IMG/VR virus record: IMGVR_UViG_3300030616_000016
Coordinates: 70,561 to 134,560 of that record
Length of the DNA: 64,000 nucleotides
From: a virus
Direction: 5' to 3' (one strand)
Shown in pieces: positions 14,108 through 49,381 of this stretch. Within the stretch, counting starts at the first letter, position 1; every line of letters starts with the position of its first letter. The translations under genes were made by a program, and so were the position numbers. A model generated the notes under the pieces. It saw nothing but the letters and a program-made list of their open reading frames with translations. It did not search any database and had not been told where the DNA came from.

Positions 14108-14575
14108 TTATTTAGATGTCTCGTATATTGCTTTGATGTCTATGTTTGATGAGTCTTCCAATAGTAATTTTACTAGTCCTATTTTATTCTTGCTGTTAAA
14201 TGAAGACATGATTGCTTTAAGTATATTATCATTGTATGCGCCACAAAATTGGCATATAATCGAGCTTCCCAGACACATACAATTTGAACATCTTTCTGTA
14301 AGTTTAGATGTAATACTTATATAATCGCGTGATATTGTTACTGGCAAGCAACCACAACTATCTATTGCCAAAATATCATAAGTATCGTTGTCTATGTATC
14401 CAACTATTATTTTTTTTGCACGCATAAATTCTTTATATATAAGGAGATTATAAGCATTATGTTCTACTTCAAATGGTATTAATATACTATCACTGTCTTG
14501 TAAGGGTTTTGTAGACCCTTCAGAAAGTGTAAGCCCAGTGAATAATATACGATCAAAACGACACGATTTACTCAT
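14108..14575 (-). CDS. Cys-rich protein, translationally coupled to E1
   Basis: CSNCMCLGSSIICQFCGAYN and SCGCLP. Its ATG overlaps the E1 stop (ATGA). Confidence 0.5.
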   Translation of the reverse strand: MSKSCRFDRILFTGLTLSEGSTKPLQDSDSILIPFEVEHNAYNLLIYKEFMRAKKIIVGYIDNDTYDILAIDSCGCLPVTISRDYISITSKLTERCSNCMCLGSSIICQFCGAYNDNILKAIMSSFNSKNKIGLVKLLLEDSSNIDIKAIYETSK

Positions 14576-15309
14576 GGTCTTTTATCCTTAAAGATATCCC
14601 ATGTCTTGAAATTAATATCTATTCCAAATGGAATTGTTTCTTCTGTTCCATTTGCAATATGATAAATACATGAGGATATCCAGCTTGCTGTCCACATTAC
14701 TGGAAATATAATGCTCTTTTCTGTACACTTGATATCAGGCATGTCTTCATCATTATCAAGATTGTTTTCCTCGAACAGCTGAACTTCATCTGGCATGTAA
14801 GGAAGTACTGCGTATGCTTCGCATTGAGTTGCTCCAATTCTTGAGTCTATAAACATGGAAATACGAGCCATATTTTGACAACTATATTCAAACAGGAGTT
14901 GTCTTGCCTTCATGTTATCGACGGCAGAAATAATAATGTCAGCTTTTCTAGCGTATTTGTCAACATCGTCTACGCTTTCAAGTCTGTCTTTATGAAATTC
15001 CCACTCCCAGTTGGGCTTTGAATATCCGCTTATAATCTTTTCAAGTTCAGCTACTTTTAGGGCTCCAGTTTGCCGCCAATTATAAATTTGGTTTGCCTGA
15101 TTATGGACTTCAATTGAATCAAAGTCTACAATAGTACATTTGGTGATACCCATTTTTGCCATAGCAACTGCAGCAAATGAACCTATGCTTCCAGCTCCAA
15201 GCATAAATACATTAAGCTTCATCAGCTTATCAATGTCAACTAGATCAAAGTGACCTTTATAAATTTCTTCATTCTCATTGAATACAAATTCTTCTTCCTG
15301 GTTAGACAT
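14572..15309 (-). CDS. E1-like adenylyltransferase (ThiF/MoeB/HesA family)
   Basis: LNVFMLGAGSIGSFAAVAMAKMGITKCTIVDFDSIEVHNQANQ (Rossmann GxGxxG and D-x-D...N-x-x-Q). AVDNMKARQLL. The ATG at 15309 follows AAAGGA; the track ORF starts at a GTG at 15336. Confidence 0.8.
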   Translation of the reverse strand: MSNQEEEFVFNENEEIYKGHFDLVDIDKLMKLNVFMLGAGSIGSFAAVAMAKMGITKCTIVDFDSIEVHNQANQIYNWRQTGALKVAELEKIISGYSKPNWEWEFHKDRLESVDDVDKYARKADIIISAVDNMKARQLLFEYSCQNMARISMFIDSRIGATQCEAYAVLPYMPDEVQLFEENNLDNDEDMPDIKCTEKSIIFPVMWTASWISSCIYHIANGTEETIPFGIDINFKTWDIFKDKRP

Positions 15310-15328
15310 TGAGTAATTCCTTTCTGGT

Positions 15329-16042
15329 CTACTCACCGAATATTGATTGCATCGAAAAGTATGTATAACATACTAGCTCATATTCCTGAATCCATTCTTC
15401 TCTTTTTGTTCCGCTTTTATCTCTTATGATGTAGCTCGGATGATAAAGACAGATTATTGGAATATCATTATTGTTATTGTTATAGTAAAATGTTTCTCCA
15501 ACTAAATCTCCCATTTTAGTTGTAGTATTTACATCTTTTATTAATGCTATAGCTGATTGTTTGCCAAGGCAAACAATCAACCATGGATCCAGTATTTCTA
15601 ATTCTTTGTGAAGAAATGGAATACATTCTTCAACACAGTCTGTGGGTGGAGGACAAGTTTTCTCACCTTGCCTGAATGGTTTGCATCTGGCTATGTTTGT
15701 TAAGTAGCATTCTGATGCTGGCAATTCGGCGGCTTCTGTCATCTCATTGAGTTCTTGTCCAGCTGGACCACAAAATGGGATGCCTTGGCTATCTTCCTGG
15801 GCCCCAGGAGATTCGCCGATAAAAACTATGTTGTATCGGTAGCTTCCTCTGCTAAAAACAGGACTAGATGCTATATTTCTTAGTCTGCATTTTGTGCAGT
15901 CTAGTACGTCCTGTTCTAAGTCTTGGAGCTGACTTTCTTTACTTATATTTTGAGTATCTCCAGACATTTTGCGTAAATCCACTAGGGGTTTTGAGTCTAA
16001 TGCGCTCTTTGTCAATACTGACAATCTCTGAGCCTGGTACAA
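15329..16042 (-). CDS. Uracil-DNA glycosylase, family 4 (start uncertain)
   Basis: CTKCRL..., IVFIGESPGAQEDSQGIPFCGPAGQELN, LYHPSYIIR. These are the family-4 UDG motifs. Confidence 0.8.
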   Translation of the reverse strand: MYQAQRLSVLTKSALDSKPLVDLRKMSGDTQNISKESQLQDLEQDVLDCTKCRLRNIASSPVFSRGSYRYNIVFIGESPGAQEDSQGIPFCGPAGQELNEMTEAAELPASECYLTNIARCKPFRQGEKTCPPPTDCVEECIPFLHKELEILDPWLIVCLGKQSAIALIKDVNTTTKMGDLVGETFYYNNNNNDIPIICLYHPSYIIRDKSGTKREEWIQEYELVCYTYFSMQSIFGE

Positions 16043-21865: not shown

Positions 21866-23164
21866 GTGACATTACCCCACGCCTAAAGGCGGGGGCTTCC
21901 TAATTCATCGAAAATTGCGTTCCATACTGGCTACGTCTTACATCTTCTCCAAAGGCTTTAGGTTCCCCTTGCCCAGGGGTACAAAATGCAAAATTCAAAA
22001 TATTACTAGATGCAAGGGCATCTCTATCGTGTTTGGCACCACAAGTGCAAGTCCAATATCTGTCACTTAGCTTAAGATTATTATTTATAGCGCCGCACTG
22101 GTTACACATCTTGCTGGATGGTTCAAATCTTCCTATAGTCAAAACATGCTTTCCATACCAACCTGCCTTATACTCAAGAAAGGTACGAAAAGTATACCAT
22201 CCAACATCAGAGATAGCCTTGGCCAAACAATGATTCTTCACCATTCCAGAAACGTTTAAATCCTCAAGACACACTGCTTGGTTCTCGTCAATGAGCCTTT
22301 TGGACAATTTATGCAAAAAATCTTTACGTTGATTAGAAATCTTCTCATGTATCAACGCTACCTTCCTACGAGCCTTGTTTCTATTTGAAGAACCTTTCTT
22401 CTTCTTTGATAATTGTTTTTGCTTTCTTGCCAATCTTCTTTCAAGTTTCTTTAGGTATCTTGGATTATCTATTTTCTCGCCTGTTGATAGTGTTGCAAAA
22501 TGTTTTAATCCAACGTCAACACCTACACTATTATCTCGTTCAGGATTACATTTGATAGGTAATTCTTCTCCATTGTCAACCAAAATAGAAGCAAAGTATT
22601 TCCCAGAAGGAGCCATGAATATAGTTACAGTTTTAATATTGCCTTCAAATTGTCTATGGAATTTGCATTTGATGCCATCACGGAATTTCATTACATATAG
22701 CCTATTATTATCAAAATCCACATTACTTCCTTGTGGAAATTGACAAGATTGCTTTTTGAATTTCTTCTTAAATTGAGGATATCTTGCCTGTTTCTTAAAA
22801 AACCGCCGGAAAGCATTGTCAAGGTTTCTAAAGGCCATTTGCAAAGATTGACTATTAACTTCCTTCAGCCAACCATGCTCAGATTTCATATGTTTCAATT
22901 GCTTTATCAAATCAAAACAGGAAGGAGATTTCCCCGTTTTTTGATAAGACTCTGTTTTCTTTTGGAGTCCCAAATTGTATATGAACCGTACACAACCAAA
23001 ATGCTTCACAAGAAGCTCCTGTTGTTTTTTGTTGGGGTATATTTTGTATTTATATGCTCGTATCATTATATTTATAGTATAGCACAGGTTTCTGTAAATG
23101 TCAAGAGAAAAACGCATTCTTATATCCCCATGGCTAAAGCCAGGGGTCTTACGAATGCACCTTG
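21866..23164 (-). mobile_element. IS200/IS605-family element carrying tnpB only (IS1341-like), 1.3 kb
   Basis: The ends are defined by comparison with copies at 33637-33883 and 62734-62781. The left end (LE) starts CAAGGTGCATTCGTAAGACCCCTGGCTTTAGCCATGGGG immediately after TTAT. The right end (RE) finishes CCCCCGCCTTTAGGCGTGGGGTAATGTCAC. Both ends have subterminal imperfect hairpins. No tnpA is present. Confidence 0.8.
21900..23066 (-). CDS. tnpB: TnpB (OrfB) RNA-guided-nuclease-family protein
   Basis: MIRAYKYKIYPNKKQQELL, GVDVGLKHFATLSTGEKIDNP (RuvC-I Asp), VCLEDLNV (RuvC-II Glu), CNQCG...CTCG (zinc finger), HDRDALASSNI (RuvC-III Asp). Confidence 0.9.
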   Translation of the reverse strand: MIRAYKYKIYPNKKQQELLVKHFGCVRFIYNLGLQKKTESYQKTGKSPSCFDLIKQLKHMKSEHGWLKEVNSQSLQMAFRNLDNAFRRFFKKQARYPQFKKKFKKQSCQFPQGSNVDFDNNRLYVMKFRDGIKCKFHRQFEGNIKTVTIFMAPSGKYFASILVDNGEELPIKCNPERDNSVGVDVGLKHFATLSTGEKIDNPRYLKKLERRLARKQKQLSKKKKGSSNRNKARRKVALIHEKISNQRKDFLHKLSKRLIDENQAVCLEDLNVSGMVKNHCLAKAISDVGWYTFRTFLEYKAGWYGKHVLTIGRFEPSSKMCNQCGAINNNLKLSDRYWTCTCGAKHDRDALASSNILNFAFCTPGQGEPKAFGEDVRRSQYGTQFSMN

Positions 23165-24371: not shown

Positions 24372-25121
24372 TTATTCAATTATTTCTTTTATTTCTTTTA
24401 TGATACTTTCTTTTGATTTAATTTTTGGTTTTGACTCATGCAATATATTATTAGTACTTTCTTGTATCATATAATCTTCAACTTGGATAGATTTTAATGT
24501 GTCTTTATACAAGTCATCGATTGTTATATCTGAAATATCATTTACACTATCAGAATATGTTGATATCATGTTATTAAATTTTGATTTAAGCTCTACTTGT
24601 TTAGACTTTGCCCTCAGAGAAATGAGCTTAGAATCATATTCATTACATTTCTTTTCATATTCTTTTATCTTATTTTCCCAGCTAATCAGAATTTTTCTTA
24701 AAGAGCTTAGTGTTTCTTTTTTAAGCTTAACTTCTTCTTTCATTTTCTTTAGAACAAGTGACCTAGAATGAATCGTTTCTAGTTCTTTTAGGTTTCGCTC
24801 TACATTTGATTCTTTTAGATTTTTCTTTATGTTACTTGTAACTTCTTGTATATTTTGTTCAAGTCCATAAACTTCTTCTTCCAGAAACTTTATATCTATT
24901 TTTAACTCTATTGCCTGTGATTTACTTACTTTCAAATTACTTTTCAGGTCATCTATAACGACCTCGATTCTATCAATTTTTACATCTGTAGGAATTGATT
25001 TTTCTATCTTCTTAACAGTAGTTTTCTGTGCTGTTTTGACATAGCTTTTAACTCTGCTGTATCCAATAAATACGATTGCTAATATTGTTATTATGGCTAC
25101 GACAACAAGTTTTTTAATCAT
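24372..25121 (-). CDS. Single-pass membrane protein with long coiled coil
   Basis: N-terminal helix LVVVAIITILAIVFIGY followed by a Lys/Glu-rich heptad-like sequence. Confidence 0.55.
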   Translation of the reverse strand: MIKKLVVVAIITILAIVFIGYSRVKSYVKTAQKTTVKKIEKSIPTDVKIDRIEVVIDDLKSNLKVSKSQAIELKIDIKFLEEEVYGLEQNIQEVTSNIKKNLKESNVERNLKELETIHSRSLVLKKMKEEVKLKKETLSSLRKILISWENKIKEYEKKCNEYDSKLISLRAKSKQVELKSKFNNMISTYSDSVNDISDITIDDLYKDTLKSIQVEDYMIQESTNNILHESKPKIKSKESIIKEIKEIIE

Positions 25122-26298
25122 TCAATTTCTCCTCTGATTTTGTTGATTTTTGTAGATTATATTGCATTATGTTTTTATCAAATTCTCTAATCTGTGTCTT
25201 CATTTCTTCTGATTCTTTTATAAGTTTGCTATATTTATGTTTGATAATAGCTTTAGAATGTAATAAGCCAATATGTTCAATAAGTTTATTAAATTTGTAA
25301 GCGAATCTAGTAGCTTTTGCTGGAATTTCTGTCAATGCTTCTACTTCTTGATCAGTTAGAGTTGAAGTTTTTAATTTATCAACTCTTGATTTTAATTCAT
25401 TAAGTTTACTTTGTGGTAATTTCAACTTATTTAATTGGTATTTGAAATCATCTTTGAGGAGATCTGCGAACTTTCCTTCTTTTGCTTCAAGTATATTATC
25501 AAAGAATCCTGTACCTTTCTTAGGTTCTTCTTCTATATATTTATCAAATCTAGTTACGGGTTCTTCCGGAGCACTCGCAAGTTCTTTCAGATACTCTGAA
25601 GGCTTAGGTAATGTTTTAGGTTCTTCTGTTGTTATTTTCTGTTGTAATGATCTTATCCACTCAGCACGTCCATCAAACTTGATGCTGTTTAAAGAAATAT
25701 GGTTATAATAATATTCAATAAGACAATCTGTTACATTTTTTAATATTTGTTCTTTTGGCATTTGATATATACAAGTCTTAAGACATTTTTTACTAATACT
25801 TTCCAAAACATTTTCTTTAATGTTTGGATATTCTGCTTTAATGTATTCTTTTATTAATGGAAGTCTTCTTTCAATAAGTTCATTATTTCTAAGATTATTC
25901 ATCATTAATAATATTACGATTGTTAAGCAAGTTCCAAAAATATATGGATTTATTTTGGTCTCAACTTTTGCAGCATCTCCATATAAGCTATGCCATATTA
26001 CAATAAGTTTTCCTGCTTGGATTATTGAATATACAATTAATGGGATAAATAATATGTATCCTAATGCCTCATATGCACTCATATATGGAAGTGTATTTAT
26101 ATTCATTATTGGCATTGGCTCCTTGGTTTGTGGAACATGGACATTGCTAAGTATTGATATAAGAATAAGTACAAACGAGATTATTAGTGCACAAAATAAT
26201 GACTTACTGGTTTGTATGATTTCAGATAAAAGTATTATCAATGCAAGTAATGGTAATCCAATACAAATGATTATTATAATGTATATAAGCACTACCAT
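25114..26298 (-). CDS. Polytopic membrane protein with C-terminal coiled-coil domain
   Basis: At least four hydrophobic helices in the first 130 aa. Overlaps the downstream gene by 8 nt. Confidence 0.55.
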   Translation of the reverse strand: MVVLIYIIIIICIGLPLLALIILLSEIIQTSKSLFCALIISFVLILISILSNVHVPQTKEPMPIMNINTLPYMSAYEALGYILFIPLIVYSIIQAGKLIVIWHSLYGDAAKVETKINPYIFGTCLTIVILLMMNNLRNNELIERRLPLIKEYIKAEYPNIKENVLESISKKCLKTCIYQMPKEQILKNVTDCLIEYYYNHISLNSIKFDGRAEWIRSLQQKITTEEPKTLPKPSEYLKELASAPEEPVTRFDKYIEEEPKKGTGFFDNILEAKEGKFADLLKDDFKYQLNKLKLPQSKLNELKSRVDKLKTSTLTDQEVEALTEIPAKATRFAYKFNKLIEHIGLLHSKAIIKHKYSKLIKESEEMKTQIREFDKNIMQYNLQKSTKSEEKLND

Positions 26299-26300
26299 AA

Positions 26301-27305
26301 TTATCTCATTAAATATAGATTGCGTAGTTCATCTCTATCATAAAACACATTACGGATTTCTTGTCTAATATTATAGTCTTGAAATATTCTATCATAAAAA
26401 CTAGTAGTATCTCCACCAAGAAATTCTATTGCATCATTTATTGGTTGAGTTGTATTATGGTCTGGAGTAATTCCAATTCCTTCTTTCTCGACTCCATATA
26501 TATCATATATAATTCCTGCTGTGTAATTGAATCCATCGCCTCTATAAAACTTATATGCTTGTACGGCTCTAAAAGCACCAAATGTTTTAGAGCCAAATAT
26601 TGTAGCTTCTGAATAGTATTTCATTGCTGAAACAAATATTTCTGCGAATTGAAATGTACAAGCACTCGTAAGTATACACATATTATTTTTATGAAGCCAT
26701 GTATTTTCTGTTTGCACAGACATATCTGCAAAATCACTAAACGCAAATGCTGTATTATTAATTGCTGCAACTAATTCATTAGAATAAGTTTTGTGAGTAA
26801 ATCCAGCAAGCAGTTTTATGTATTCGCCTAATCCGCCATTATTACAATATCTAAGATCGAGAATTAAAGAATTGCATTCGAATTCATACATGTAATGGTT
26901 GACATTAAGCATAACAGTTTCTGCCATTCCAGCAGACATTTTATCTACAGATATATATAATATATCTGGTTCAATTTTATATATTTTTAATGTTCCTGAT
27001 GCTTCATTATCTGATATGGCTGCTTCCATTTCTTCGCTGTTTATATACCTTGTATATAAATCTGTTTCAGAACGGAGTCTATTTATATATGATTCTAAAG
27101 TATCTGAAGTTAAAGGTGGTTGAACGTTTCCATAAATATAGCCTTGTGATAATACCGAATATGCTTCTTGTAGATATTCTTCATCTACGTTTGTAATTTG
27201 ATTTTCTGTATTTGGATTGCTACTATTTCCTCCTCCTCCACAGCCATTACAAAATATAATTATGATACATAATATGAACAAATTAATTTTGATATTTTTT
27301 ATCAA
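26301..27305 (-). CDS. Lipoprotein, S41 (C-terminal processing peptidase)-like domain
   Basis: Signal and lipobox LFILCIIIIFCNGC|GGGG. LILDLRYCNNGGLGEY resembles the S41 DLR-x-N-x-GG motif. GSKTFGAF aligns with the G-x-x-T-x-G-K region but lacks the Lys. TTG start with an AAGAGG RBS. Confidence 0.45.
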   Translation of the reverse strand: MIKNIKINLFILCIIIIFCNGCGGGGNSSNPNTENQITNVDEEYLQEAYSVLSQGYIYGNVQPPLTSDTLESYINRLRSETDLYTRYINSEEMEAAISDNEASGTLKIYKIEPDILYISVDKMSAGMAETVMLNVNHYMYEFECNSLILDLRYCNNGGLGEYIKLLAGFTHKTYSNELVAAINNTAFAFSDFADMSVQTENTWLHKNNMCILTSACTFQFAEIFVSAMKYYSEATIFGSKTFGAFRAVQAYKFYRGDGFNYTAGIIYDIYGVEKEGIGITPDHNTTQPINDAIEFLGGDTTSFYDRIFQDYNIRQEIRNVFYDRDELRNLYLMR

Positions 27306-27428
27306 GACTACCTCTTTCTGTTTAATAATGGTTGTAATGAATAGGAAAGTCTCTGGTAAGGCAAAAGGATGAAGAGCACGAGGGCTCTTTGGGGGAAGTC
27401 GAAAATTCTCACCAGAGACGGGATATAT

Positions 27429-28220
27429 TTAGAAATCAGTTGATTTTGCGGTTCTCATACCGCGAGCCATCATTTCTTTCACAAAGTCTTCTCCAAGACT
27501 TTCGAAGGTCGCTACATTTGAAGTTGTATCTTCAATTAATACAAACTTCTTAATATTCTCATCGCCGAAGTTATCAGCAATGTCTCTTACTGTATTTGCA
27601 ACACAGTGTGACAGAGCTTCTCCAGTTATGAGAATATCGTCTGCTTCCAGTAGGCTATCAAGAAGATTGCCATTAAGTCTTGTAGTAGGGTCAGACGGGT
27701 CTTCTACATCGGCTTTTACTGCTGAGTAGTGTTCTGTAAAAGGATTAGACCCTTTAGTAACATAGTCAATCATAGCAAACTGATTTTCCCACTCAGTTAT
27801 TGCTTCGAACACATTAGCATCGATTGAATGTCCTTGCGAACCAATAAGACAATGTGGCCGCCAGATGCAGAGAACATATCTGCCATTGTCTTCAAGTGTT
27901 TTTGTATAATCTGAAGCTTTCTGTTGAAGAGCTGGGTTATAGGAATGCCAGACACCATTTTTTACATCATCATGGGATATTACTGTAAATGGGTTTGGAT
28001 GTTTACCATCTTTATCAACCCAGAATATAGGATGTGCAATATGAATGGTTCTGTGAGAATCCATTGTAATATGGATATCATCTAATCCGTCTTTCATTCT
28101 GTTGACCATTTCTGCAAGACGTTTCATATCCTCATCTGCTCTAGGAACAACTAGGGCTCCTTTTGGATTACAGAAGTCATATTGAGGATCAATAGCAAGA
28201 AGATGAGTTTTCTTGTTCAT
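27429..28220 (-). CDS. pncA: Nicotinamidase / isochorismatase-family cysteine hydrolase
   Basis: LLAIDPQYDFCNPKGALVV (catalytic Asp region), MDSHRTIHIAHP (metal-binding D-x-H...H), ITGEALSHCVANTV (catalytic Cys). Confidence 0.7.
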   Translation of the reverse strand: MNKKTHLLAIDPQYDFCNPKGALVVPRADEDMKRLAEMVNRMKDGLDDIHITMDSHRTIHIAHPIFWVDKDGKHPNPFTVISHDDVKNGVWHSYNPALQQKASDYTKTLEDNGRYVLCIWRPHCLIGSQGHSIDANVFEAITEWENQFAMIDYVTKGSNPFTEHYSAVKADVEDPSDPTTRLNGNLLDSLLEADDILITGEALSHCVANTVRDIADNFGDENIKKFVLIEDTTSNVATFESLGEDFVKEMMARGMRTAKSTDF

Positions 28221-28239
28221 AATTGCTGACCTTTCTTAG

Positions 28240-29895
28240 TTATTTTTTAATACTGATAGAGAACATTTCTTTATCCTCTGTAAAGTATACACTGGTACCA
28301 TCAGTGTATAGTGGCATTGATGAGTCTATCGGCGGATTAGTAATAATGCGTTTTTGATTATCTTTAGAGATCTCAATCTTTTGATCGCTAAATACATCAA
28401 TGCAAACTCCATTATTAAGAACAATGAAATTGATATTATCAACATCGCGCTCTTCTTTGTCTAGCAGAATACCTTTATTTTCTTTGCTGCATAGTTTGAA
28501 TCGGAATCTATAATATTTACCAGATTCTTCTGCTATGCATACTAGAATTCCTCTGCTATGTTTTGCATTGATTATTCTAAGTCCATGGAGTTCCTCAATA
28601 GGACCTAGAAAACTACCAGAATCTTCTAATGGCGCATATGCCCAACATTTGTCTAGGAAGTTGCTAATTACTACTCCACTAAACATTTGATTCATAGTAC
28701 CAAGATTTTGGGATGGATTCGAGCATGCCGCGCTCTTATTCCCCATATTTTTTGCATATACCTCATATACTGAGGCGCCGTTTCTGCAAAATATACTACC
28801 ATTGTATATCATGGCTTTGTCTGCGGCAAATTTACCTGGTATATCCGTTTCTATTTCTACACAGCCATTATCAATTATGCCTAACACAGGGTCAGGAGAT
28901 AGATTGCATAGAAATGCCTTTTTATTGGATATATCCTTAAATATGGATTTACCACAGTATATTGCCTTATCCGTAAATGTATAGAAAATACCATTTAGGA
29001 ATTGTATTGATTTAATCGGCTCATTGTACTTATACATTGATTTAATGTCAAAATTTGCTGTGCTTCTTATAGTCTTTTGAACCATAGCTATATTAATTGT
29101 AGCGTCAGGTTTAGGTGGAGCGCTGCGTTTATTCTCAATGAATATTGACTTAAACCACTCCATATGAGCTTTAGGAATAACTGAGAAGTCTTGACATACG
29201 GATGGAATGGTAACCTTACTATCAAATACGGATATACCATCATCCATTCGCTTAGTAAATTCTCTTGGTTTATAGTCTGGGTGTTTACCCTTATAAGGAT
29301 GGATACCAACATAAAGCTGAAATGCTATTACTGCAAACGAGAACCAATCGCTTAGTTCTGTGAACTTTTTGGCTAAGCGGTCTCTTATTGAATCCATAAT
29401 AGCATTAGCTGGAAATGACTTTGTCTGATAACTGTCAACGTCAATAAAGTAAGGTACTTTATGACCTTTGTCTATCAGAAAGTTCATTTCATTCATATCT
29501 ACTATCAGGCATTGTTTAGAATGAATGTGCTCGACCGTGTCTTGTATATTGCGCACAATTTCTAATACTTGATTAGGAGATATATTATTATCTTTTCTGT
29601 ACTGCTTAGTAAAGAGCTTGCATAGAGCACTTGTCTCTTTAATATACTTCATTGTATATCCGATGACATTGCTTGTCTTTTTATCGCAAACAATATCTTC
29701 CGGTTTGATAACATTGCCGGCTGTTATATAGCCAAGCTCTTCAATCTTTCTTAATGGTATCATATGCTTGATATCATTATAAATCTTGAAGGCAATATTG
29801 TCTTTTTTATATACAGAACCTTGACCACCAGATGCAATAAAATCATTGTCTTTCAGGTCAAATGAAGCCTTTGTTCTATTTACAATGACTCTCAT
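28240..29895 (-). CDS. Ser/Thr protein kinase with large C-terminal domain
   Basis: IASGGQGSVYKKDNIAFKIY (Gly-rich loop and Lys). HSKQCLIVDMNEMNFLI (catalytic-loop D..N). FIDVDSY (DFG-equivalent). Confidence 0.7.
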   Translation of the reverse strand: MRVIVNRTKASFDLKDNDFIASGGQGSVYKKDNIAFKIYNDIKHMIPLRKIEELGYITAGNVIKPEDIVCDKKTSNVIGYTMKYIKETSALCKLFTKQYRKDNNISPNQVLEIVRNIQDTVEHIHSKQCLIVDMNEMNFLIDKGHKVPYFIDVDSYQTKSFPANAIMDSIRDRLAKKFTELSDWFSFAVIAFQLYVGIHPYKGKHPDYKPREFTKRMDDGISVFDSKVTIPSVCQDFSVIPKAHMEWFKSIFIENKRSAPPKPDATINIAMVQKTIRSTANFDIKSMYKYNEPIKSIQFLNGIFYTFTDKAIYCGKSIFKDISNKKAFLCNLSPDPVLGIIDNGCVEIETDIPGKFAADKAMIYNGSIFCRNGASVYEVYAKNMGNKSAACSNPSQNLGTMNQMFSGVVISNFLDKCWAYAPLEDSGSFLGPIEELHGLRIINAKHSRGILVCIAEESGKYYRFRFKLCSKENKGILLDKEERDVDNINFIVLNNGVCIDVFSDQKIEISKDNQKRIITNPPIDSSMPLYTDGTSVYFTEDKEMFSISIKK

Positions 29896-30731
29896 GGCTT
29901 ATCCTTAAGCAGTGTAGCACATGCTATATCATCAAAGTGCTTATTGTTTATTTTGGAATCCATGATGCGTATTTTCTTCATTCTTCTTTTTACAAACTCT
30001 CCTTTGAAGGTTTTATATACAGTCATTCGTATAGCGTTATCAAGCACACTTGTATTTTCAAAAGAGCTTATACCATCAGTGAACAGGCTTATGCTCATTC
30101 CTTCTGCCATTGGCGCACTAGACATTATGTATGGCTCGAACATGGGGATTGTAGAGCTCTTAAAGTCTTCGTCTGGGTTATATGACAATACTGTTTTTTC
30201 TGGATTGCCCAATATATCCATAGTATTCATATAGTCTTTAATCTTTTCATCTTCCATGCGATATGCAAGATAGTATGGCATGTTAGATGTATATGATATT
30301 TCTTCAATACGAATCCATGGATTTGGGTCATTCGCTCTATCAAAACCATCATTAAAGACAACTACTCCATCTCCCCATACTGCTATGCCAAATCCCTCAT
30401 TATTGGCTATTACTACCATAAGCGTGGCATAGAATGTCTGGATGTCAAGACAAAGAGCTATTGCTACTTTTGATAGCGCTCCCAACACTTTATTTTCAAA
30501 TGAACAAAGAGCAGTTGATAATGTCTTGTGTCCAAACATAACTATTGAGCTTCTTAATGCTTGTTCTGCAGCAATTCCAAGTATTTTTGCACCAAGGTCT
30601 GTGTTTTGTGCAGAAGAACAGCCGTCACAGACGATACCATAGGAATAACCATAGATATCGCCTGTGATAGCATAATCTTCACACATATCATGACTGGCAC
30701 CAATTTCTACAAAACTATCTTTCTGTATCAT
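29892..30731 (-). CDS. PP2C-family protein phosphatase
   Basis: IGASHDMCEDYA, VCDGCSSAQNTDLGAKI, LFTDGISSF. This is the PP2C_2-type pattern. Overlaps the kinase start by 4 nt. Confidence 0.65.
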   Translation of the reverse strand: MIQKDSFVEIGASHDMCEDYAITGDIYGYSYGIVCDGCSSAQNTDLGAKILGIAAEQALRSSIVMFGHKTLSTALCSFENKVLGALSKVAIALCLDIQTFYATLMVVIANNEGFGIAVWGDGVVVFNDGFDRANDPNPWIRIEEISYTSNMPYYLAYRMEDEKIKDYMNTMDILGNPEKTVLSYNPDEDFKSSTIPMFEPYIMSSAPMAEGMSISLFTDGISSFENTSVLDNAIRMTVYKTFKGEFVKRRMKKIRIMDSKINNKHFDDIACATLLKDKP

Positions 30732-30747
30732 TGGTACTCCCAGTCAT

Positions 30748-31497
30748 TTAGAAGTTAAGAATTGAAGATGCCGAGCCGGATCCAAGAGACTGTGATTGTG
30801 AGGATATGCTTTGACTCACAAATTCAGCCAGCTTTGCAAGCTTGGATGGAGTAGCTTCTCCGACAGATACGTATTTATCAAGGTTTGCATTATCCTTGAA
30901 TGTAGTCAAGAAATTCTTGACTGCAGGATCTTTATCAATCCCGATAAGAACCGTAATAATTGATTCGAGGCTTTCTTCTCTTGTGATATCATCTACTAAC
31001 GTAGCAACTTGTACTGGCGCATTATTTGATTGATTATCAGCGCCATCTGTAATGATAAATACAATTGCATTTGTTAGGAGATCTACTTTATCATACATCT
31101 GCTTGCTATACTGATGTGTTGCTTCGATGCCTTCATATGTTGCATCAAATAATGCAGTTGTACCGCCTGTACGGATGATATTAGAGTATTCATCATCACT
31201 AATATCACTTAGGAGGCGGAAACCATGCATTTCGTTCAGATTAGCATTGAATGTAGTGAAGCGAACCATTAAGTTTTCTGCACGTGGAGACTTTTTGCAT
31301 GATTCGATTACAGTTTTCAGCATATCCTCAATATCATCTTTGTATGGAGACACTGAAGAAGATACGTCGATAATAATTGAAACGAGTGTATATTCAGAAG
31401 CACCTAGTTCATCAAGCTTTACAGCACTGAATCTGAAGTTTGATGCAGTCTGCATACTGGTTATGTTTGCAAGATCTTTATCCATTAATCTTGGCAT
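30748..31497 (-). CDS. von Willebrand factor A (vWA) domain protein, TerY-like
   Basis: MIDAS residues: IIIDVSSSVS (DxSxS), GGTTALFDA (Thr), FIITDGADN (Asp). Confidence 0.75.
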   Translation of the reverse strand: MPRLMDKDLANITSMQTASNFRFSAVKLDELGASEYTLVSIIIDVSSSVSPYKDDIEDMLKTVIESCKKSPRAENLMVRFTTFNANLNEMHGFRLLSDISDDEYSNIIRTGGTTALFDATYEGIEATHQYSKQMYDKVDLLTNAIVFIITDGADNQSNNAPVQVATLVDDITREESLESIITVLIGIDKDPAVKNFLTTFKDNANLDKYVSVGEATPSKLAKLAEFVSQSISSQSQSLGSGSASSILNF

Positions 31498-31499
31498 GG

Positions 31500-32486
31500 T
31501 TATTTCCTTTCTTTGTTAAGCCTGTTTCCTTCTCCTAAATGCATAAGGGGAAGCGGTTTAGGGCTATCACCATTTAGGAAGTATACCTTGGTAGCCGGGT
31601 CTTTTGTAATTGTACCTAGTGCTTTAAGTGCTTCAAGCTGGATATATGCAGGATTATTTGCAATAGCATCGTTAACTTTCTGAATTTCATATGCTTTTGC
31701 GTCTGCAAGGATCTTCTGTTTTTCTGCTGAAAGCATTGCGGCGTCTTTATCTGCCTGAGCAGTTTTAACTTTCTTCTGCTGTTCAGTCTCAAACCTGCGC
31801 AACTCTGCTTTCTCACGTTCAGCTTCCTGCTCGCGTTTCTTCTTACTCTCAACACCTTGCTGGATTGTGTTGGGAAGTTGAATATTTCTAATGAGAACAG
31901 CTTCAACATCAAGGCCCTTTGGTGCAACGTATTCTTTAATTGAAGTAAGAAGATTTGCCTGCATCTTTTGCTGAATTTCTTCCCTAAAGAATGACTCTGC
32001 AGTTTTCACACTTTTACCTTGTTCTCGCAATAAGCTTCGGAACTTGGGTAACATGTGTACTTCCATAAGGTCTTTAGGATTACCGGTTTCTTGCAGAATG
32101 TCTGGAGCCATAGACTTGATAATTCGATACTGACAGCTTACATCGAATGTCGTAACAAGCTGGTCCATACTTGGGATGGGAACCTGGCTCATTGTAATAC
32201 TTTTCTGACGACAATCGAATTCTTCCCAATCATACAAAGGATTGGTAAGGTGAATGCCTGCTTCATAGGGCTGATCAACGACTTTACCAAAGAATGTAGC
32301 TACTCCAATATGTCCTGGAGGTATTGAGATAACACATGAAGCGATGAGAGTAATAGCGCCGACGGCTCCTACCAGTAGACCGCCAAGAATATAAGGACGC
32401 CTTTTTTCTTCTGATTTAGCCATAAGACCATATACAAACACCAACAAACCGATTAATGCAATTATAATACCAAGAGCAAGTATCAT
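31500..32486 (-). CDS. SPFH/Band-7 (prohibitin/HflK/C-like) membrane protein
   Basis: Two N-terminal TM helices, then IPPGHIGVATFFGKVVDQPYEAGIHLTNPLYDW and a C-terminal Lys/Glu/Ala coiled coil. Confidence 0.75.
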   Translation of the reverse strand: MILALGIIIALIGLLVFVYGLMAKSEEKRRPYILGGLLVGAVGAITLIASCVISIPPGHIGVATFFGKVVDQPYEAGIHLTNPLYDWEEFDCRQKSITMSQVPIPSMDQLVTTFDVSCQYRIIKSMAPDILQETGNPKDLMEVHMLPKFRSLLREQGKSVKTAESFFREEIQQKMQANLLTSIKEYVAPKGLDVEAVLIRNIQLPNTIQQGVESKKKREQEAEREKAELRRFETEQQKKVKTAQADKDAAMLSAEKQKILADAKAYEIQKVNDAIANNPAYIQLEALKALGTITKDPATKVYFLNGDSPKPLPLMHLGEGNRLNKERK

Positions 32487-32508
32487 ATTACTACCTTTCT
32501 AAATCAAA

Positions 32509-32646
32509 TTACTTTTTAGTATATATACCAATGAAACCATTCCACTGGTAATTTTTGTACTTAATACCACAAATGAATCCAAACAATAGTGTAGATAGAA
32601 CAACAAAGCCTATCATTATTAAAGTAGCTTTTGCTAATTGTTTCAT
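32509..32646 (-). CDS. Small membrane protein (45 aa), not in ORF track
   Basis: MKQLAKATLIMIGFVVLSTLLFGFICGIKYKNYQWNGFIGIYTKK, directly upstream of the SPFH gene. Confidence 0.35.
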   Translation of the reverse strand: MKQLAKATLIMIGFVVLSTLLFGFICGIKYKNYQWNGFIGIYTKK

Positions 32647-32921
32647 TCTACACCTCTATAATAAGTAAGTTTCCGTATAGCAGCCAACTCCTGGGGAAAT
32701 CGACATTAGGAAAGCATGTCGACTAACTATATGTCTCCATATAGAACAGGTGAAACGTTGGTTTCTCGATTAACTTTCACCTTTCAGCTGTCAACTTTCA
32801 AATCCTGAACTTTGAATTTTAAAGTTTGAGCTTTGAAGGGCTAAGTTTAGTTCGTATTATGAGTACGATACGTAATTCCTATTTTCTTTTCTCCCTCTTC
32901 GCTATGGAAAACTTATTGTAT

Positions 32922-33440
32922 TTATTCTATTGTAATAGTAGTCGTTGCATTGATCATTGACAGCTTACCGTCAATTTCATCTTCAATTTCGCCAAGCTCT
33001 TCCAGTTTCTTATGAACACTTGGTGCATCGACACTGATGACAAGTCCCGCACTGTCTTTGTCGAAGCTGTTGTTCATCGATTCTTCTTGCTTTACATGGC
33101 TATAAACTTGCATATATGAAGTTTTAATTGAAGGGAGAGTTTCTCTTCTCCAAATTAGCCATTCTGCAATTGTCATTTCATAATTGCCAATTTTAACAAC
33201 AGTTGCTTCATTTGCAAGCTGAATTGCCATTCTGATGTTCTTTTTGCGTTCGGCAAGATCAGTGATTGTTTGCATTGTATCTTGCACGAATTTTGCTGAT
33301 CCGCCTTCATTTTCGTATGGATCCTTAAATTTCTCATTCCTTATAGAAACATCAATAACTGCTTTAGTTTTCTTGTTAATCTTATTATTGATGAGTTTAA
33401 TTTCTGCGAGCCCTTCCGTAATAGTCATGTTTGATTCCAT
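32922..33440 (-). CDS. DIP1984-family-like protein
   Basis: The GAGGAAAGG RBS precedes the MESN initiator at 33440; the family-like architecture begins at MTITEGLAEIKLINNKINKK. LAERKKNIRMAIQLANEATVV...TIAEWLIWRRETLP...EEIDGKLSMINATTTI matches the family architecture as recalled. Confidence 0.55.
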   Translation of the reverse strand: MESNMTITEGLAEIKLINNKINKKTKAVIDVSIRNEKFKDPYENEGGSAKFVQDTMQTITDLAERKKNIRMAIQLANEATVVKIGNYEMTIAEWLIWRRETLPSIKTSYMQVYSHVKQEESMNNSFDKDSAGLVISVDAPSVHKKLEELGEIEDEIDGKLSMINATTTITIE

Positions 33441-33636
33441 GCTGAACCTTTCCTCTCTATTAATTTGTTTTAACCAAAAATTCACCAAACAACACAACTT
33501 GCTTATTAAATGATAATTAGATAGTTACTTAGATAATCAAATTATTTGATAGATCGGTAACATATCTCAATTATGCAATTTTTTGGTAATATATGTATAT
33601 CACTGTGCCTTAAAATGAGTACCTATTATCGTTTAT

Positions 33637-43009: not shown

Positions 43010-44020
43010 TTACCAAGGCCAGTTAGGGACCTCGATCTTATGAACATGTTTCAAGTGATCGAATGCATAAGGCTGGAAAGGCGCTTCGACGCCATAATGA
43101 GCACGATAAGCAACTTCCCACCAGTGAGACAGGAATATCTTAGTAGCCCATCTCTTACTTCTCATATGAATCTGACTATTGGGGAGCTTGCCTTCGCGAT
43201 ATATTGCCCTCTGTTTATGACCAGGCACTCTTCGAAGAACTTCTCGTGCAATATGCGCATATTCCTTGGCTTCATTCTTACGCGACTCGATAATCTTCCT
43301 TTCAACAACAAGATGTCCATAGAGATCTTTTGGATTGTTGCATGTCATATTGAAAGACTCACCGATTTTCCAGCAGAGTGTTTTCAGTTCTGAATTCCAG
43401 GGACGCATTGACAGACCTCTGTAAAGCGTCTTGCCTGTATGAACTCCGCCTCCTTTCTGTAATGAGAGACGAAGTGCGGTAGCTGCTTTGATTCCTCCGG
43501 CTTCTTGTATCGCATTTGCTACCTTAATAGCATCTTCTTCAGATACTCTTCTTGTACTATCAGGATTAATACCGGCTTCGTCAACCATGATTTCTCTTGT
43601 AACTTTCTTGCCAAGCCAGCGCTTTCCGTCTACAAGACCAGCATAGCTATAGATATGTCCTGGAGTCTTAGCTTTGTCCATATCTATATGGGCAATAAGA
43701 CCGGCGCTGATAACAGGGCCAATACCTACAACTGATTGAGCCCATGTACCAATTTTTGTTGATAATGAGAAATGATTGAGCGCGAGCTTCACCTGATTCT
43801 CAAGACGCTCCGCATTCTTAAGAAACCAATCAAGCACTTCCATTGGAGGGTCGTCTACGCCCTGCTCTGCTGCTCTAAGCTGACCAGCAAGCCTGATTCT
43901 CTGGTTCTGCATGGTATAATAACTATCTACCAGATAGCGGGCTTCCTGACGCGTAATCTTTCTTGACGCGTTTCTTATGTCTTTACCTACTCTTTCAATA
44001 ATTTCTTCAATAGCCATCAC
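43010..44020 (-). CDS. Protein with IS110/IS116/IS902-type transposase C-terminal (HhH) domain-like region
   Basis: VVGIGPVISAGLIAHIDMDKAKTPGHIYSYAGL resembles the GIGP..A..L.AEI....F......YAGL motif. I could not see the N-terminal DEDD catalytic domain. Confidence 0.4.
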   Translation of the reverse strand: MMAIEEIIERVGKDIRNASRKITRQEARYLVDSYYTMQNQRIRLAGQLRAAEQGVDDPPMEVLDWFLKNAERLENQVKLALNHFSLSTKIGTWAQSVVGIGPVISAGLIAHIDMDKAKTPGHIYSYAGLVDGKRWLGKKVTREIMVDEAGINPDSTRRVSEEDAIKVANAIQEAGGIKAATALRLSLQKGGGVHTGKTLYRGLSMRPWNSELKTLCWKIGESFNMTCNNPKDLYGHLVVERKIIESRKNEAKEYAHIAREVLRRVPGHKQRAIYREGKLPNSQIHMRSKRWATKIFLSHWWEVAYRAHYGVEAPFQPYAFDHLKHVHKIEVPNWPW

Positions 44021-44038: not shown

Positions 44039-45196
44039 TTAAAGCATGTTTACCATGCTATTATATAGACCCGCATACTCTTGCGGGCCTGAACGTTTGC
44101 CTGGGTTATCGGACAATTTAACAGTAGGAACAAAGCCCTCTCTATTATATGAACAGGCAGTCATTTTAATAACGATATTAAGAGGATCTACTCCAACATC
44201 ATTAGTGAAATTAGTGCCTATACCATATACTGTTTTGATTCTTTTGTTTACATATTCTTCTATCTCAAGAACCTTGTCAACATCAAGAGAGTCTGAGAAT
44301 ACAATGGTTTTTGTACTTGGATCTATACCAAGGCTCTCATAGTGTTTTATTATTTTGTCAGCAAATTCCATAGGATCGCCTGAATCTTGCCTTACACCAT
44401 CCCAAAGACTCGCTCTGACATAATCAAATGATCTTAGAAACCAATCAGTTGTATAAGTATCAGTAAGCGCTATGCCTAGTTTGCCCTTATATGTCTCTGC
44501 CCATTTATCAAGGGCAATAGAAGTAGCCATTTGAGGACCAAATATGGCGCCGTGGAACATAAACCACTCATGAGCTTGTGTGCCAATTGGTCGCATGTTA
44601 TGAGTGGTTGCTAATAATACATTACTTGTACCAAGACAGTATTGTGAAATTTGTTTTCTTGTAGACATGTCATCCAGAAGTTCATTCTGTACACCAAATG
44701 AAAATCTGCGTCTGGTTCCGAATTCTATGAAGTTGACTTTGTGCTTGATGAGTTTGTCAACCTTGTCTACATTTGTTTTATATCTTTCTTTCCTGAACTT
44801 AGGCGCTATACCAAGCTTAAGATAGTATAGCTCGCTAATAGCCGCTAATAGCGGTACTTCCCATAGTATAGCAGAATACCATGGCCCGCATATTTCTACT
44901 TTGAGATCTTCGTCTGTTTGTGTAACACATACTTCATTAGGATTGAATCGATGATGTCGTAGGTATTCTAGATATGTTGAATCAAAGACTCCAATCTTTC
45001 GCATAGCTGTAATACTATCGTCTATAAAGTATGTATGTTGCATATGATCAATAAACTCATTTAATTCCTTTTGCATACTTTCAGGGAACTCAGTCTTTGT
45101 TCTTGACTTGAATTCATATTTTACTAATGCAGATGGATAGTGTTTAAGTACTGCATTTTGCATGGCGAACTTATAGAAATCATTGTCTGCTGCCAT
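44039..45196 (-). CDS. pncB: Nicotinate phosphoribosyltransferase
   Basis: NDFYKFAMQNAVLKHYP (TD-x-YK-x-TM region). LGTSNVLLATTHNMRPIGTQAHEWF (GTSN...GT.AH). 385 aa. Confidence 0.75.
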   Translation of the reverse strand: MAADNDFYKFAMQNAVLKHYPSALVKYEFKSRTKTEFPESMQKELNEFIDHMQHTYFIDDSITAMRKIGVFDSTYLEYLRHHRFNPNEVCVTQTDEDLKVEICGPWYSAILWEVPLLAAISELYYLKLGIAPKFRKERYKTNVDKVDKLIKHKVNFIEFGTRRRFSFGVQNELLDDMSTRKQISQYCLGTSNVLLATTHNMRPIGTQAHEWFMFHGAIFGPQMATSIALDKWAETYKGKLGIALTDTYTTDWFLRSFDYVRASLWDGVRQDSGDPMEFADKIIKHYESLGIDPSTKTIVFSDSLDVDKVLEIEEYVNKRIKTVYGIGTNFTNDVGVDPLNIVIKMTACSYNREGFVPTVKLSDNPGKRSGPQEYAGLYNSMVNML

Positions 45197-48119: not shown

Positions 48120-48488
48120 TTAGTCAATGTACCCATTTTTCTTAAAGCTAACTAATACTATCTTATTTTTCTCGCGATCATGTTGAAGCTTGATGTATAC
48201 TTTGGTATTACCTATTACTGTTTTGTATACATCCATATATTTTCTTACGTATAGATTTGCTTTTGTTGCATAAGCAAAATCTGGCTCTTTTAAGTTGAGC
48301 AGAGTTTCTACAACTTGGCTTTTTGAAAAGCTAAAGTCTTTTTGCGCATGATATCTCGCATCTCTTAATATCATATATCTATCATTCTTAATGAGAGTTT
48401 TTGCGCCTTCTAACTCAATAGAAGGCATGGCTCTCCTTTTTATGACAGGGAGATCTATGTCATTATTATTTGCTAAAGATACTTTCAC
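48120..48488 (-). CDS. mqsR: MqsR-family toxin-like protein
   Basis: LKEPDFAYATKANLYVRKYMDVYK...TKVYIKLQHDREKNKIVLVSFKKN aligns by eye with E. coli MqsR LSESDFYKSMTT...WQDVYR...QVYLKITVIHDVLIVSFKEK. Confidence 0.55.
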   Translation of the reverse strand: MKVSLANNNDIDLPVIKRRAMPSIELEGAKTLIKNDRYMILRDARYHAQKDFSFSKSQVVETLLNLKEPDFAYATKANLYVRKYMDVYKTVIGNTKVYIKLQHDREKNKIVLVSFKKNGYID

Positions 48489-49036: not shown

Positions 49037-49381
49037 TTATTTCGCTTCACGGACATCAATCCCAAGTTTGTCTTTAATCCACTTTGCAACAAGATGTCTG
49101 TGACAAAACTTCGTTGATCCTTCCCAGCATAATAGTATGGGTTCGCCGTCTACTAGCTCATGAATTTCATCATAAACTTCAGCGGCATTTAATTTACTTA
49201 GAATCTTGTCGTATTCTCGTACATAGGCTATTTTATCCAAGTTTCTTCTATAGGACTGTAATAATTCTTGTGATGGAGCTAATGTACGATATGTTGAGCC
49301 TATATAGAATTTTGGAGGAAATAGCGCTATAGACACTGCATCTGGATGAGTACCATAATTTCTGAAGTATGAAGTTTTCAA
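49037..49381 (-). CDS. DUF488-family protein
   Basis: LAPSQELLQSY...ILLCWEGSTKFCHRHLVAKWI (LLC.E....CHR..va.w). Confidence 0.6.
   Translation of the reverse strand: MKTSYFRNYGTHPDAVSIALFPPKFYIGSTYRTLAPSQELLQSYRRNLDKIAYVREYDKILSKLNAAEVYDEIHELVDGEPILLCWEGSTKFCHRHLVAKWIKDKLGIDVREAK

Follow-up and report, generated by a model that had tools for sequence, protein, structure and literature searches.

The stretch of viral DNA analysed here, referred to below as the window, is 64 kb in length (64,000 nucleotides, positions 70,561 to 134,560 of the IMG/VR record IMGVR_UViG_3300030616_000016). Its minus strand encodes at 27429-28220 a nicotinamidase-like cysteine hydrolase of 263 amino acids, which we call NIC, together with three genes packed closely against it and, further away, a gene for nicotinate phosphoribosyltransferase (PncB). 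NIC was characterised from its open reading frame (ORF), profile searches, an AlphaFold2 model, Foldseek comparison of that model and residue conservation. The ORF runs from ATG to TAA over exactly 27429-28220 (263 codons), and a Shine-Dalgarno-like sequence resembling a ribosome-binding site, AAGAAAGG, lies shortly 5' of the ATG. A protein identical to NIC is predicted on an ENA metagenome contig of 231,593 bp (ERZ27252234:k141_1275754), of which positions 97,042-161,041, reverse-complemented, make up the window. Results given below for "the inspected 81 kb" refer to positions 88.8-170.2 kb of this 231.6-kb contig.

The NIC cassette and PncB in the window

Four genes in close succession on the same strand encode, in this order, a vWA-domain protein, a PP2C-type phosphatase, a Ser/Thr kinase and, in last place, NIC; the gaps between them are 16, -4 and 19 nt. 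The vWA protein (249 amino acids, 30748-31497, minus strand) carries a metal ion-dependent adhesion site (MIDAS) made up of D44-x-S46-x-S48, T114 and D151, and ends in a conserved Ser-rich C-terminal tail. The MIDAS residues are invariant in the vWA family, the profile of which scores 320 bits against the window ORF and matches no PDB sequence. Its identification as a vWA protein is based on the MIDAS motif in combination with Pfam VWA matches in 7 of 24 family members, the window copy not being among the seven. The phosphatase (279 amino acids, 29892-30731, minus strand) matches Pfam PP2C_2 at 40.1 bits, over a cut-off of 24, with conservation of the metal-binding Asp motifs D36-G37, D121-G122, D219-G220 and D267-D268. 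Its stop codon overlaps the start of the kinase gene by 4 nt. The eukaryotic-like Ser/Thr kinase (551 amino acids, 28240-29895, minus strand) has a Pfam Pkinase match of 30.1 bits, a kinase domain at residues ~1-260 with conserved K37, D133, N138 and D152, and an all-beta C-terminal domain of about 270 residues. Protein kinases are the best Foldseek matches of its AlphaFold2 model, which has a predicted local distance difference test score (pLDDT) of 88.5. The model predicts about 28 strands in residues 282-549, from which we infer a propeller-like C-terminal domain.

A terminator-like hairpin with a T-rich tail, found by a consensus scan at 27372..27389 on the minus strand, 40 nt past the NIC stop codon, possibly marks the end of the operon; the scanned region holds eight such sites against 3.7 +/- 1.9 expected, which is only suggestive. 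A sigma-70 promoter scan of 26200-33600 is uninformative, with 38 sites where 32.9 +/- 5.6 are expected.

The product of the gene at 44039..45196 (minus strand, 385 amino acids) had been named PncB in the sequence-only reading, correctly so: its 438 bits on NF003704 exceed the cut-off of 379 and its 394 bits on TIGR01514 that of 269.55, and both the NAPRTase_N and the NAPRTase domains of Pfam are present. A profile built from PncB sequences linked to the cassette in other loci matches it at 450 bits, which identifies it as the orthologue of the PncBs found inside or beside the cassette in related loci. In the window it is 16 kb away from the cassette. Directly downstream of PncB is an IS110-type transposase-like gene (43010-44020, minus strand; Transposase_20, 23.4 bits), and a TnpB/OrfB_IS605 gene (21900-23117, minus strand; phrog_506, 1.5e-133) starts about 4.3 kb downstream of the NIC stop codon at 27429. 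Mobile elements such as these may have caused the separation of PncB and cassette in this genome. PncB relatives are found in at least 577 stretches of IMG/VR viral contigs, as opposed to 170 for the NIC family and 145 for the cassette kinase, and thus many phages have PncB without the cassette.

The NIC family

All motifs by which the sequence-only reading recognised an isochorismatase-fold protein with nicotinamidase-type Asp, metal-site and Cys residues are present in the ORF: LLAID11PQYDF with the catalytic Asp, VTK156GSN with the Lys, GEALSHC206V with the Cys and the A-L oxyanion segment, and the metal-site motifs TMD54SH56 and IWRPH123C. NIC has more than 3,100 homologues, the best 120 of which share 59-68% identity with the query (self-match 100%), and the family comprises 2,520 clusters at 50% identity. 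Among 140 representatives with pairwise identity of 50% or less, D11, D54, H56, H123, K156 and F16 are each kept in 140 of 140 and C206 in 138. Conservation of such a motif set across sequences this divergent is far more than chance would give.

Nicotinamidases are the best matches among PDB sequences of a profile built from 25 family members, with yeast Pnc1 (2h0r, 6e-12) in first place, followed by 29iv, the Leishmania enzyme 3r2j and Mycobacterium tuberculosis PncA (3pl1). In the profile alignment, D11, K156 and C206 of NIC fall on the catalytic D8, K122 and C167 of Pnc1, and D54, H56 and H123 on its zinc ligands D51, H53 and H94; the W-P-x-H-C, K-G...Y-S-A and A-L-x-x-C motifs match residue for residue. 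The AlphaFold2 model (mean pLDDT 93.3) has an isochorismatase-like alpha/beta fold. In Foldseek comparisons with PDB, ranks 1-11 are all nicotinamidases (E-values 3e-16 to 2e-10), under which come maleamate amidase, biuret hydrolase, RutB and carbamoylsarcosine amidase (CSHase). By profile and by fold, then, NIC falls among the nicotinamidases and outside isochorismatases and other amidohydrolases, the grouping that would have spoken against the sequence-only reading. The gene product is very probably an enzyme that deamidates nicotinamide.

The Asp-x-His...His metal site of nicotinamidases holds a free pyridine nitrogen, which favours free nicotinamide over nicotinamide mononucleotide (NMN), nicotinamide riboside (NR) or nicotinamide adenine dinucleotide (NAD) as the substrate of NIC. 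We have rejected the latter three, given that the conserved metal site would, by analogy with known nicotinamidase structures, require the nitrogen to be free. An isochorismatase or EntB-type role is likewise rejected, as siderophore context is absent and nicotinamidases outrank the rest of the superfamily.

The family is essentially absent from reference viral proteomes: only five structures in BFVD match NIC, mostly giant-virus nicotinamidases at 11-17% identity. Longer members of the family are tandem duplications, proteins with N-terminal extensions of unknown kind, and one fusion to a TRP channel-like protein; a Rosetta-stone test among them found no fusion of NIC to vWA, PP2C, kinase or PncB. 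The TRP-like fusion, P0197, comes from outside the window and is a eukaryote-like protein of 1,629 amino acids that joins ankyrin repeats to a TRP-like ion-transport domain and a tandem pair of NIC-family domains, the first retaining the catalytic and metal motifs and the second lacking the Cys and His residues. Its architecture recalls that of TRPM2 with its NUDT9-H domain, and by this analogy suggests a nicotinamide-sensing channel.

Distribution and conservation of the cassette

The NIC family was found in at least 170 IMG/VR contigs and in the genomes of at least 579 bacterial species, its bacterial carriers including complete Capsulimonadaceae chromosomes, Pyrinomonadaceae, Thiotrichales and Desulfobacterales. 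Through NIC relatives, 80 loci were fetched from viruses and another 80 from bacteria or archaea; linkage was counted in those that were non-redundant and reached at least 6 kb to either side (60 viral and 20 bacterial). The full triad of vWA, PP2C and kinase genes lies within 10 kb of NIC in 52 of the 60 viral and 11 of the 20 bacterial loci, and at least two of the three in 56 and 14, respectively. Wherever all four genes are found in a non-redundant locus they are on the same strand (79 of 79), and in 73 of these 79 the order is NIC-vWA-PP2C-kinase, which makes the order of the window a rare one. Searching in the reverse direction, from 60 viral loci anchored on the kinase, NIC was found within 10 kb in 57, vWA in 57 and PP2C in 59. 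The association between NIC and the triad is therefore reciprocal and near-obligate. NIC is thus no free-standing salvage enzyme: its gene belongs to a closely linked set of four that is conserved in bacteria as well as in phages, a context that the sequence-only reading missed.

NAD-related and ADP-ribose-related neighbours

Recurrent neighbours were identified by unbiased clustering of all ORFs in the loci, followed by Pfam annotation of recurrent clusters. PncB recurs near the NIC family in 20 viral and 12 bacterial groups, and in at least three contigs with no PncB within 10 kb it is found about 14-30 kb from the cassette (L022, L080 and L091). Other recurrent neighbours are NadE of two types, a NadD-like nucleotidyltransferase and a second member of the NAPRTase family. 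The NAD regulator NrtR is found in 5 viral and 18 bacterial groups, typically just upstream and on the same strand. A further set of neighbours is related to ADP-ribose, and consists of NADAR, PARP, ADP-ribosylglycohydrolase (ARH), Nudix and Tpt1 proteins.

In some phages the NAD-synthesis genes PncB, NadE and NadD are interleaved among those of the cassette (L039, L057, L069, L084, L086 and L026). The gene order in L039 is NIC-vWA-PncB-...-NadE-PP2C-NadD-...-kinase. L026 (IMGVR_UViG_3300035208_007133) has PncB-NadE-NIC-vWA-PP2C-kinase, followed by a second NIC-family ORF, a NadD-like gene and NrtR, and is the most complete phage version seen, with the full Preiss-Handler set and a regulator. 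In an Opitutaceae genome NrtR-NadE-PncB is transcribed divergently from the cassette. A conserved protein of about 189 amino acids with no Pfam match (cluster c34) is encoded between NrtR and the NIC gene in six bacterial groups (in L148, L122 and other loci, e.g. at L122:9221-9787), and could be a further component of the bacterial cassette.

In the inspected 81 kb, profiles of the relatives recover the four cassette genes and PncB. The same profiles and Pfam find no NadD, NadE, NadR, NadV, NrtR, Nudix, NADAR, PARP, ARH or Tpt1 there, and the NadD-like and NadE profiles of related phages give nothing at E<=1. The lack of NadD, NadE, NadR, NadV and Nudix genes in this region fits reliance on NadD and NadE of the host, as the sequence-only reading had anticipated.

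Comparison with known systems

No description of the cassette was found in the literature searched for a nicotinamidase in connection with vWA, PP2C, TerY or NrtR, an absence of evidence that extends only as far as that search. NIC has in common with PncA and Pnc1 (2h0r/3v8e, Acinetobacter baumannii 2wta, M. tuberculosis 3pl1 and Pyrococcus horikoshii 1ilw) the fold, the Asp-Lys-Cys triad, the metal site and the motifs. Its identity to the solved nicotinamidases that Foldseek matched is only 13-22%. Unlike PncA, it is longer, scores below the cut-offs of NF008623 and PF00857, and is nearly always encoded with vWA, PP2C and kinase genes, a linkage that to our knowledge has not been described for PncA genes.

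The closest counterpart of the three accompanying genes is the TerY-P triad of a TerY-like vWA protein, a PP2C phosphatase and a Ser/Thr kinase, reportedly described by Anantharaman and colleagues in 2012. The two triads are alike in having a vWA protein with MIDAS, PP2C metal sites, kinase catalytic residues and contiguous genes on one strand, and both are mobile units joined to varied partner genes. According to the part of PMC10542128 that deals with TerY-P, such triads occur in tellurite-resistance loci, in CoCoNuT systems and as stand-alone defence (Gao et al. 2020, as cited there), and the kinase is fused at its C-terminus to a Zn-ribbon in classical versions or to an OB-fold in defence versions. 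The cassette kinase differs in that its model ends in the ~270-residue all-beta tail, with no Zn-ribbon or OB-fold. The cassette also differs in that the constant partner of its triad is a nicotinamidase, that is a metabolic enzyme, often accompanied by NAD-synthesis genes.

The experimentally shown NAD routes of phages are NARP1 (Adps and Namat), NARP2 (NadV and NMNAT) and NARP3 (PnuC and NadR), none of which involves PncA or PncB in the portions of the literature that describe them. As in those accounts of the NARPs, the enzymes considered here are phage-encoded and start from an NAD breakdown product or precursor, which for NARP1 and NARP2 is also nicotinamide. In contrast to them, the NIC route would deamidate by way of nicotinate and nicotinate mononucleotide (NaMN), would require NadD and NadE, and has a signalling triad attached. 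None of the NARP1, NARP2 or NARP3 enzymes is among the Pfam matches in the inspected 81 kb, where the sole phosphoribosyltransferase is of the PncB class.

A survey published in Microbiome in 2024 (PMC11662467) reports, in its passages on this pathway, "NAD-jumbo phages" with Preiss-Handler pncB-nadD-nadE clusters, and mentions phage pncA. The source of the window resembles the phages of those passages in that it is a jumbo-phage contig with PncB, and its relatives join PncB, NadD-like and NadE genes; it differs in that the window shows PncB and the cassette, with no NadD or NadE seen. The passages of the survey on pncA, pncB, NAPRT, Preiss and nadD contain neither the NIC family nor the cassette, vWA, PP2C and kinase not having been among the terms searched for. 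Given these reports and the at least 577 PncB matches in IMG/VR, the suggestion in the sequence-only reading that a PncA and PncB combination would be a different solution for phages overstated its novelty, and a phage nicotinamidase with PncB is not new in kind. Phage G carries a PncA-like gene that is unrelated. In two surveys from the Aravind group, of jumbo phages and of viral NAD and ADP-ribose systems, the words "nicotinamidase" and "isochorismatase" are absent from both, and "PncA" is absent from the second.

Proposed function and alternatives

The interpretation that we lean towards, at slightly better than even chances, is that NIC and PncB form a phosphorylation-regulated module for salvage of nicotinamide to NaMN, with the vWA, PP2C and kinase proteins as the switch. 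NIC would be an active metal-dependent nicotinamidase that deamidates free nicotinamide to nicotinate, and the phage PncB would convert nicotinate to NaMN, the entry to the Preiss-Handler pathway; the host, or another part of the phage genome, would provide NadD and NadE. NIC would be co-transcribed with the vWA and PP2C genes and with a kinase bearing a beta-rich, sensor-like domain. A TerY-P-like phosphorylation switch would most likely turn salvage on or off, or assemble its first step, in response to a signal, with the Ser-rich tail of the vWA protein as a candidate target of the kinase. The regulatory role of these three proteins is proposed from the linkage of the genes. Such a module would keep NAD available in jumbo-phage infection, including when NADases of the host release nicotinamide. 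For the phage the gain may lie in countering NADase defences (Thoeris, DSR, Sir2-type), the role inferred in the sequence-only reading, or simply in a larger supply of NAD. As the same cassette is found beside NrtR in bacterial chromosomes, this suggests a general role in NAD homeostasis that has been borrowed by phages.

Several observations weigh against this proposal. NIC fails the NCBIfam PncA equivalog model NF008623, with 33.7 bits where the cut-off is 174, and Pfam Isochorismatase (PF00857), with 18.8 bits where the cut-off is 27, although some of its relatives exceed the latter. It is about 50-80 residues longer than solved nicotinamidases, as a result of family-specific insertions and a C-terminal extension, and its substrate could differ accordingly. 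Only 19 of the 60 viral and 7 of the 20 bacterial non-redundant loci have PncB within 10 kb of NIC. Lastly, we know of no salvage pathway that employs a kinase/phosphatase/vWA switch. The failure to reach the two curated cut-offs indicates that NIC belongs to a divergent nicotinamidase subfamily not covered by curated models, rather than being an orthodox PncA. The nicotinamidase identity given in the sequence-only reading therefore stands as regards fold and residues, which are of nicotinamidase type, and does not extend to the strict PncA family. Its proposal of a PncA and PncB entry into the Preiss-Handler pathway is plausible in view of the genuine PncB and the NAD-related neighbourhoods, with the qualification that the first enzyme is from this divergent subfamily.

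The alternative that survives best, and that we hold to be unlikely, is that NIC clears nicotinamide and so relieves inhibition of sirtuins, PARPs, ADP-ribosyltransferases and Tpt1, leaving the phage or the cell free to run reactions that consume NAD and are based on ADP-ribose; the triad would time the clearance. Yeast Pnc1 relieves the nicotinamide inhibition of Sir2, and clearance would agree with the frequency with which the NIC family adjoins PARP, ADP-ribosylglycohydrolase, NADAR, Nudix and Tpt1 genes, as well as with the limitation of PncB within 10 kb to just about one third of loci. The inspected 81 kb argues otherwise, as none of these five ADP-ribose-related genes was detected there and PncB is present. 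So do the several phages in which a full PncB-NadD-NadE set is interleaved with the cassette, and the bacteria in which the cassette is preceded by NrtR, a regulator of NAD synthesis. Clearance and salvage are compatible, and not mutually exclusive.

A slightly smaller probability is given to NIC being a hydrolase of another amide or ester, for example a signalling molecule, a modified base or a nicotinamide analogue, with its likeness to PncA reflecting shared ancestry only. Against the subthreshold scores on the PncA and Isochorismatase models, an identity of 11-22% to solved nicotinamidases, the long family-specific insertions of the AlphaFold2 model at residues ~57-118 and ~157-183, and the presence of invariant H63, C124 and H205 outside the six matched catalytic and metal residues of Pnc1, all of which would suit a different substrate, can be set the Asp-x-His...His metal set, which is characteristic of nicotinamidases among isochorismatase-like hydrolases and is kept in 140 of 140 representatives. 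The residue-by-residue alignment of the WPxHC, KG..YSA and ALxxC motifs to Pnc1, the lower fold-search positions of maleamate amidase, biuret hydrolase, RutB and CSHase, and a neighbourhood that is overwhelmingly NAD-related also speak for nicotinamide.

Least probable of the three is a conflict system, in which the TerY-P-like triad would control NIC as an effector that destroys nicotinamide upon infection. Phages that use Namat of NARP1 or NadV of NARP2, both of which require nicotinamide in the accounts of these routes noted above, would be starved, and the owner, either a bacterium or a resident jumbo phage that keeps out superinfecting phages, would regain NAD through nicotinate. The architecture of vWA, PP2C and Ser/Thr kinase is that of TerY-P, versions of which act as stand-alone anti-phage systems according to the same part of PMC10542128; the kinase weakly matches the defence kinases mad6 (26.5 bits) and PD-T4-6, and the cassette is found in both bacterial chromosomes and phages. 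On the other side, PADLOC, run on nine window proteins, finds no known defence system and no model matching vWA, PP2C or NIC; as the kinase matches are only weak, we have not adopted the cassette as a TerY-P defence system. With a kinase whose tail is neither the Zn-ribbon nor the OB-fold described for TerY-P, and with recurrent neighbours that serve NAD synthesis and its regulation and do not form defence islands, the conflict explanation is speculative and without precedent.

Other genes of the window and the source genome

The cassette of the window is flanked by genes with membrane-related products. A Band_7/SPFH protein (31500-32486, minus strand) has its stop codon 3 nt ahead of the vWA start, and on the other side are an S41 peptidase with a lipoprotein-like N-terminus (26301-27305, minus strand), a multi-pass membrane protein of 394 amino acids (25114-26298, minus strand) and a PspA/IM30-like protein (24372-25121, minus strand). 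None of the four recurs beside the cassette in other loci.

The G+C content of the window is 36%, and one strand carries nearly all of its genes. Most of its proteins have no family match; those recognisable in the region include a jumbo-phage-type RNA polymerase beta subunit, DNA polymerase III alpha, RecA, UvrD, RuvC and HU. For ten large window proteins compared with PHROGs, the only matches were to the RNA polymerase beta subunit, to the TnpB transposase and, weakly, to a ligase. In phage databases, NIC is matched most closely in three "huge phage" genomes, which measure 462-595 kb. Neither the window nor the rest of the inspected 81 kb shows a capsid or terminase gene, and a tRNA scan found no tRNA gene. 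The source is likely to be a jumbo phage, its viral identity being deduced from the jumbo-phage-type RNA polymerase, the homologues in huge-phage genomes and the IMG/VR contigs.

Three other pairs of genes, all on the minus strand, may be mentioned. An RVT_1 reverse transcriptase of 382 amino acids (878-2026) overlaps the end of a RecA-like gene (1983-3107), and could belong to a retron, group II intron or diversity-generating element. Among small genes of unknown function are those for an MqsR-toxin-like protein (48120-48488) and a DUF488 protein (49037-49381). A ThiF/E1-like protein (14572-15336) adjoins a uracil-DNA-glycosylase-family protein (15329-16042), upstream of a DEAD/ResIII helicase.

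Significance

Of greater interest is the conserved arrangement by which bacteria and jumbo phages alike couple a divergent nicotinamidase, and in many cases the entire Preiss-Handler pathway, to a kinase, a phosphatase and a vWA protein. It is conceivable, and we put it forward tentatively as something that may well prove otherwise, that the four genes, often with PncB, NadD and NadE, constitute an undescribed signal-controlled Preiss-Handler NAD module, switched by phosphorylation, which recycles nicotinamide released by NADases and is shared by bacteria and jumbo phages. If this is true, it would be in effect a fourth kind of phage NAD-rebuilding pathway, and the first example in which a TerY-P-type triad controls a metabolic enzyme. 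As curated models miss the large NIC family, automated surveys of NAD metabolism in phages and bacteria probably under-count nicotinamidases.

Depletion of NAD is a major anti-phage strategy. NARP1-3, as set out in the accounts of them referred to above, avoid the deamidated branch of NAD synthesis, to which a phage nicotinamidase with PncB would add an entry by the Preiss-Handler route. The reciprocal linkage to the kinase, phosphatase and vWA genes matters more, as it implies that dedicated post-translational control of NAD salvage is possible. Current models of NAD homeostasis in bacteria have transcriptional control by NrtR, NiaR and NadR, with no dedicated post-translational control of salvage. 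TerY-P-type triads, which are widespread yet mechanistically obscure, would for their part gain a defined and assayable enzymatic partner.

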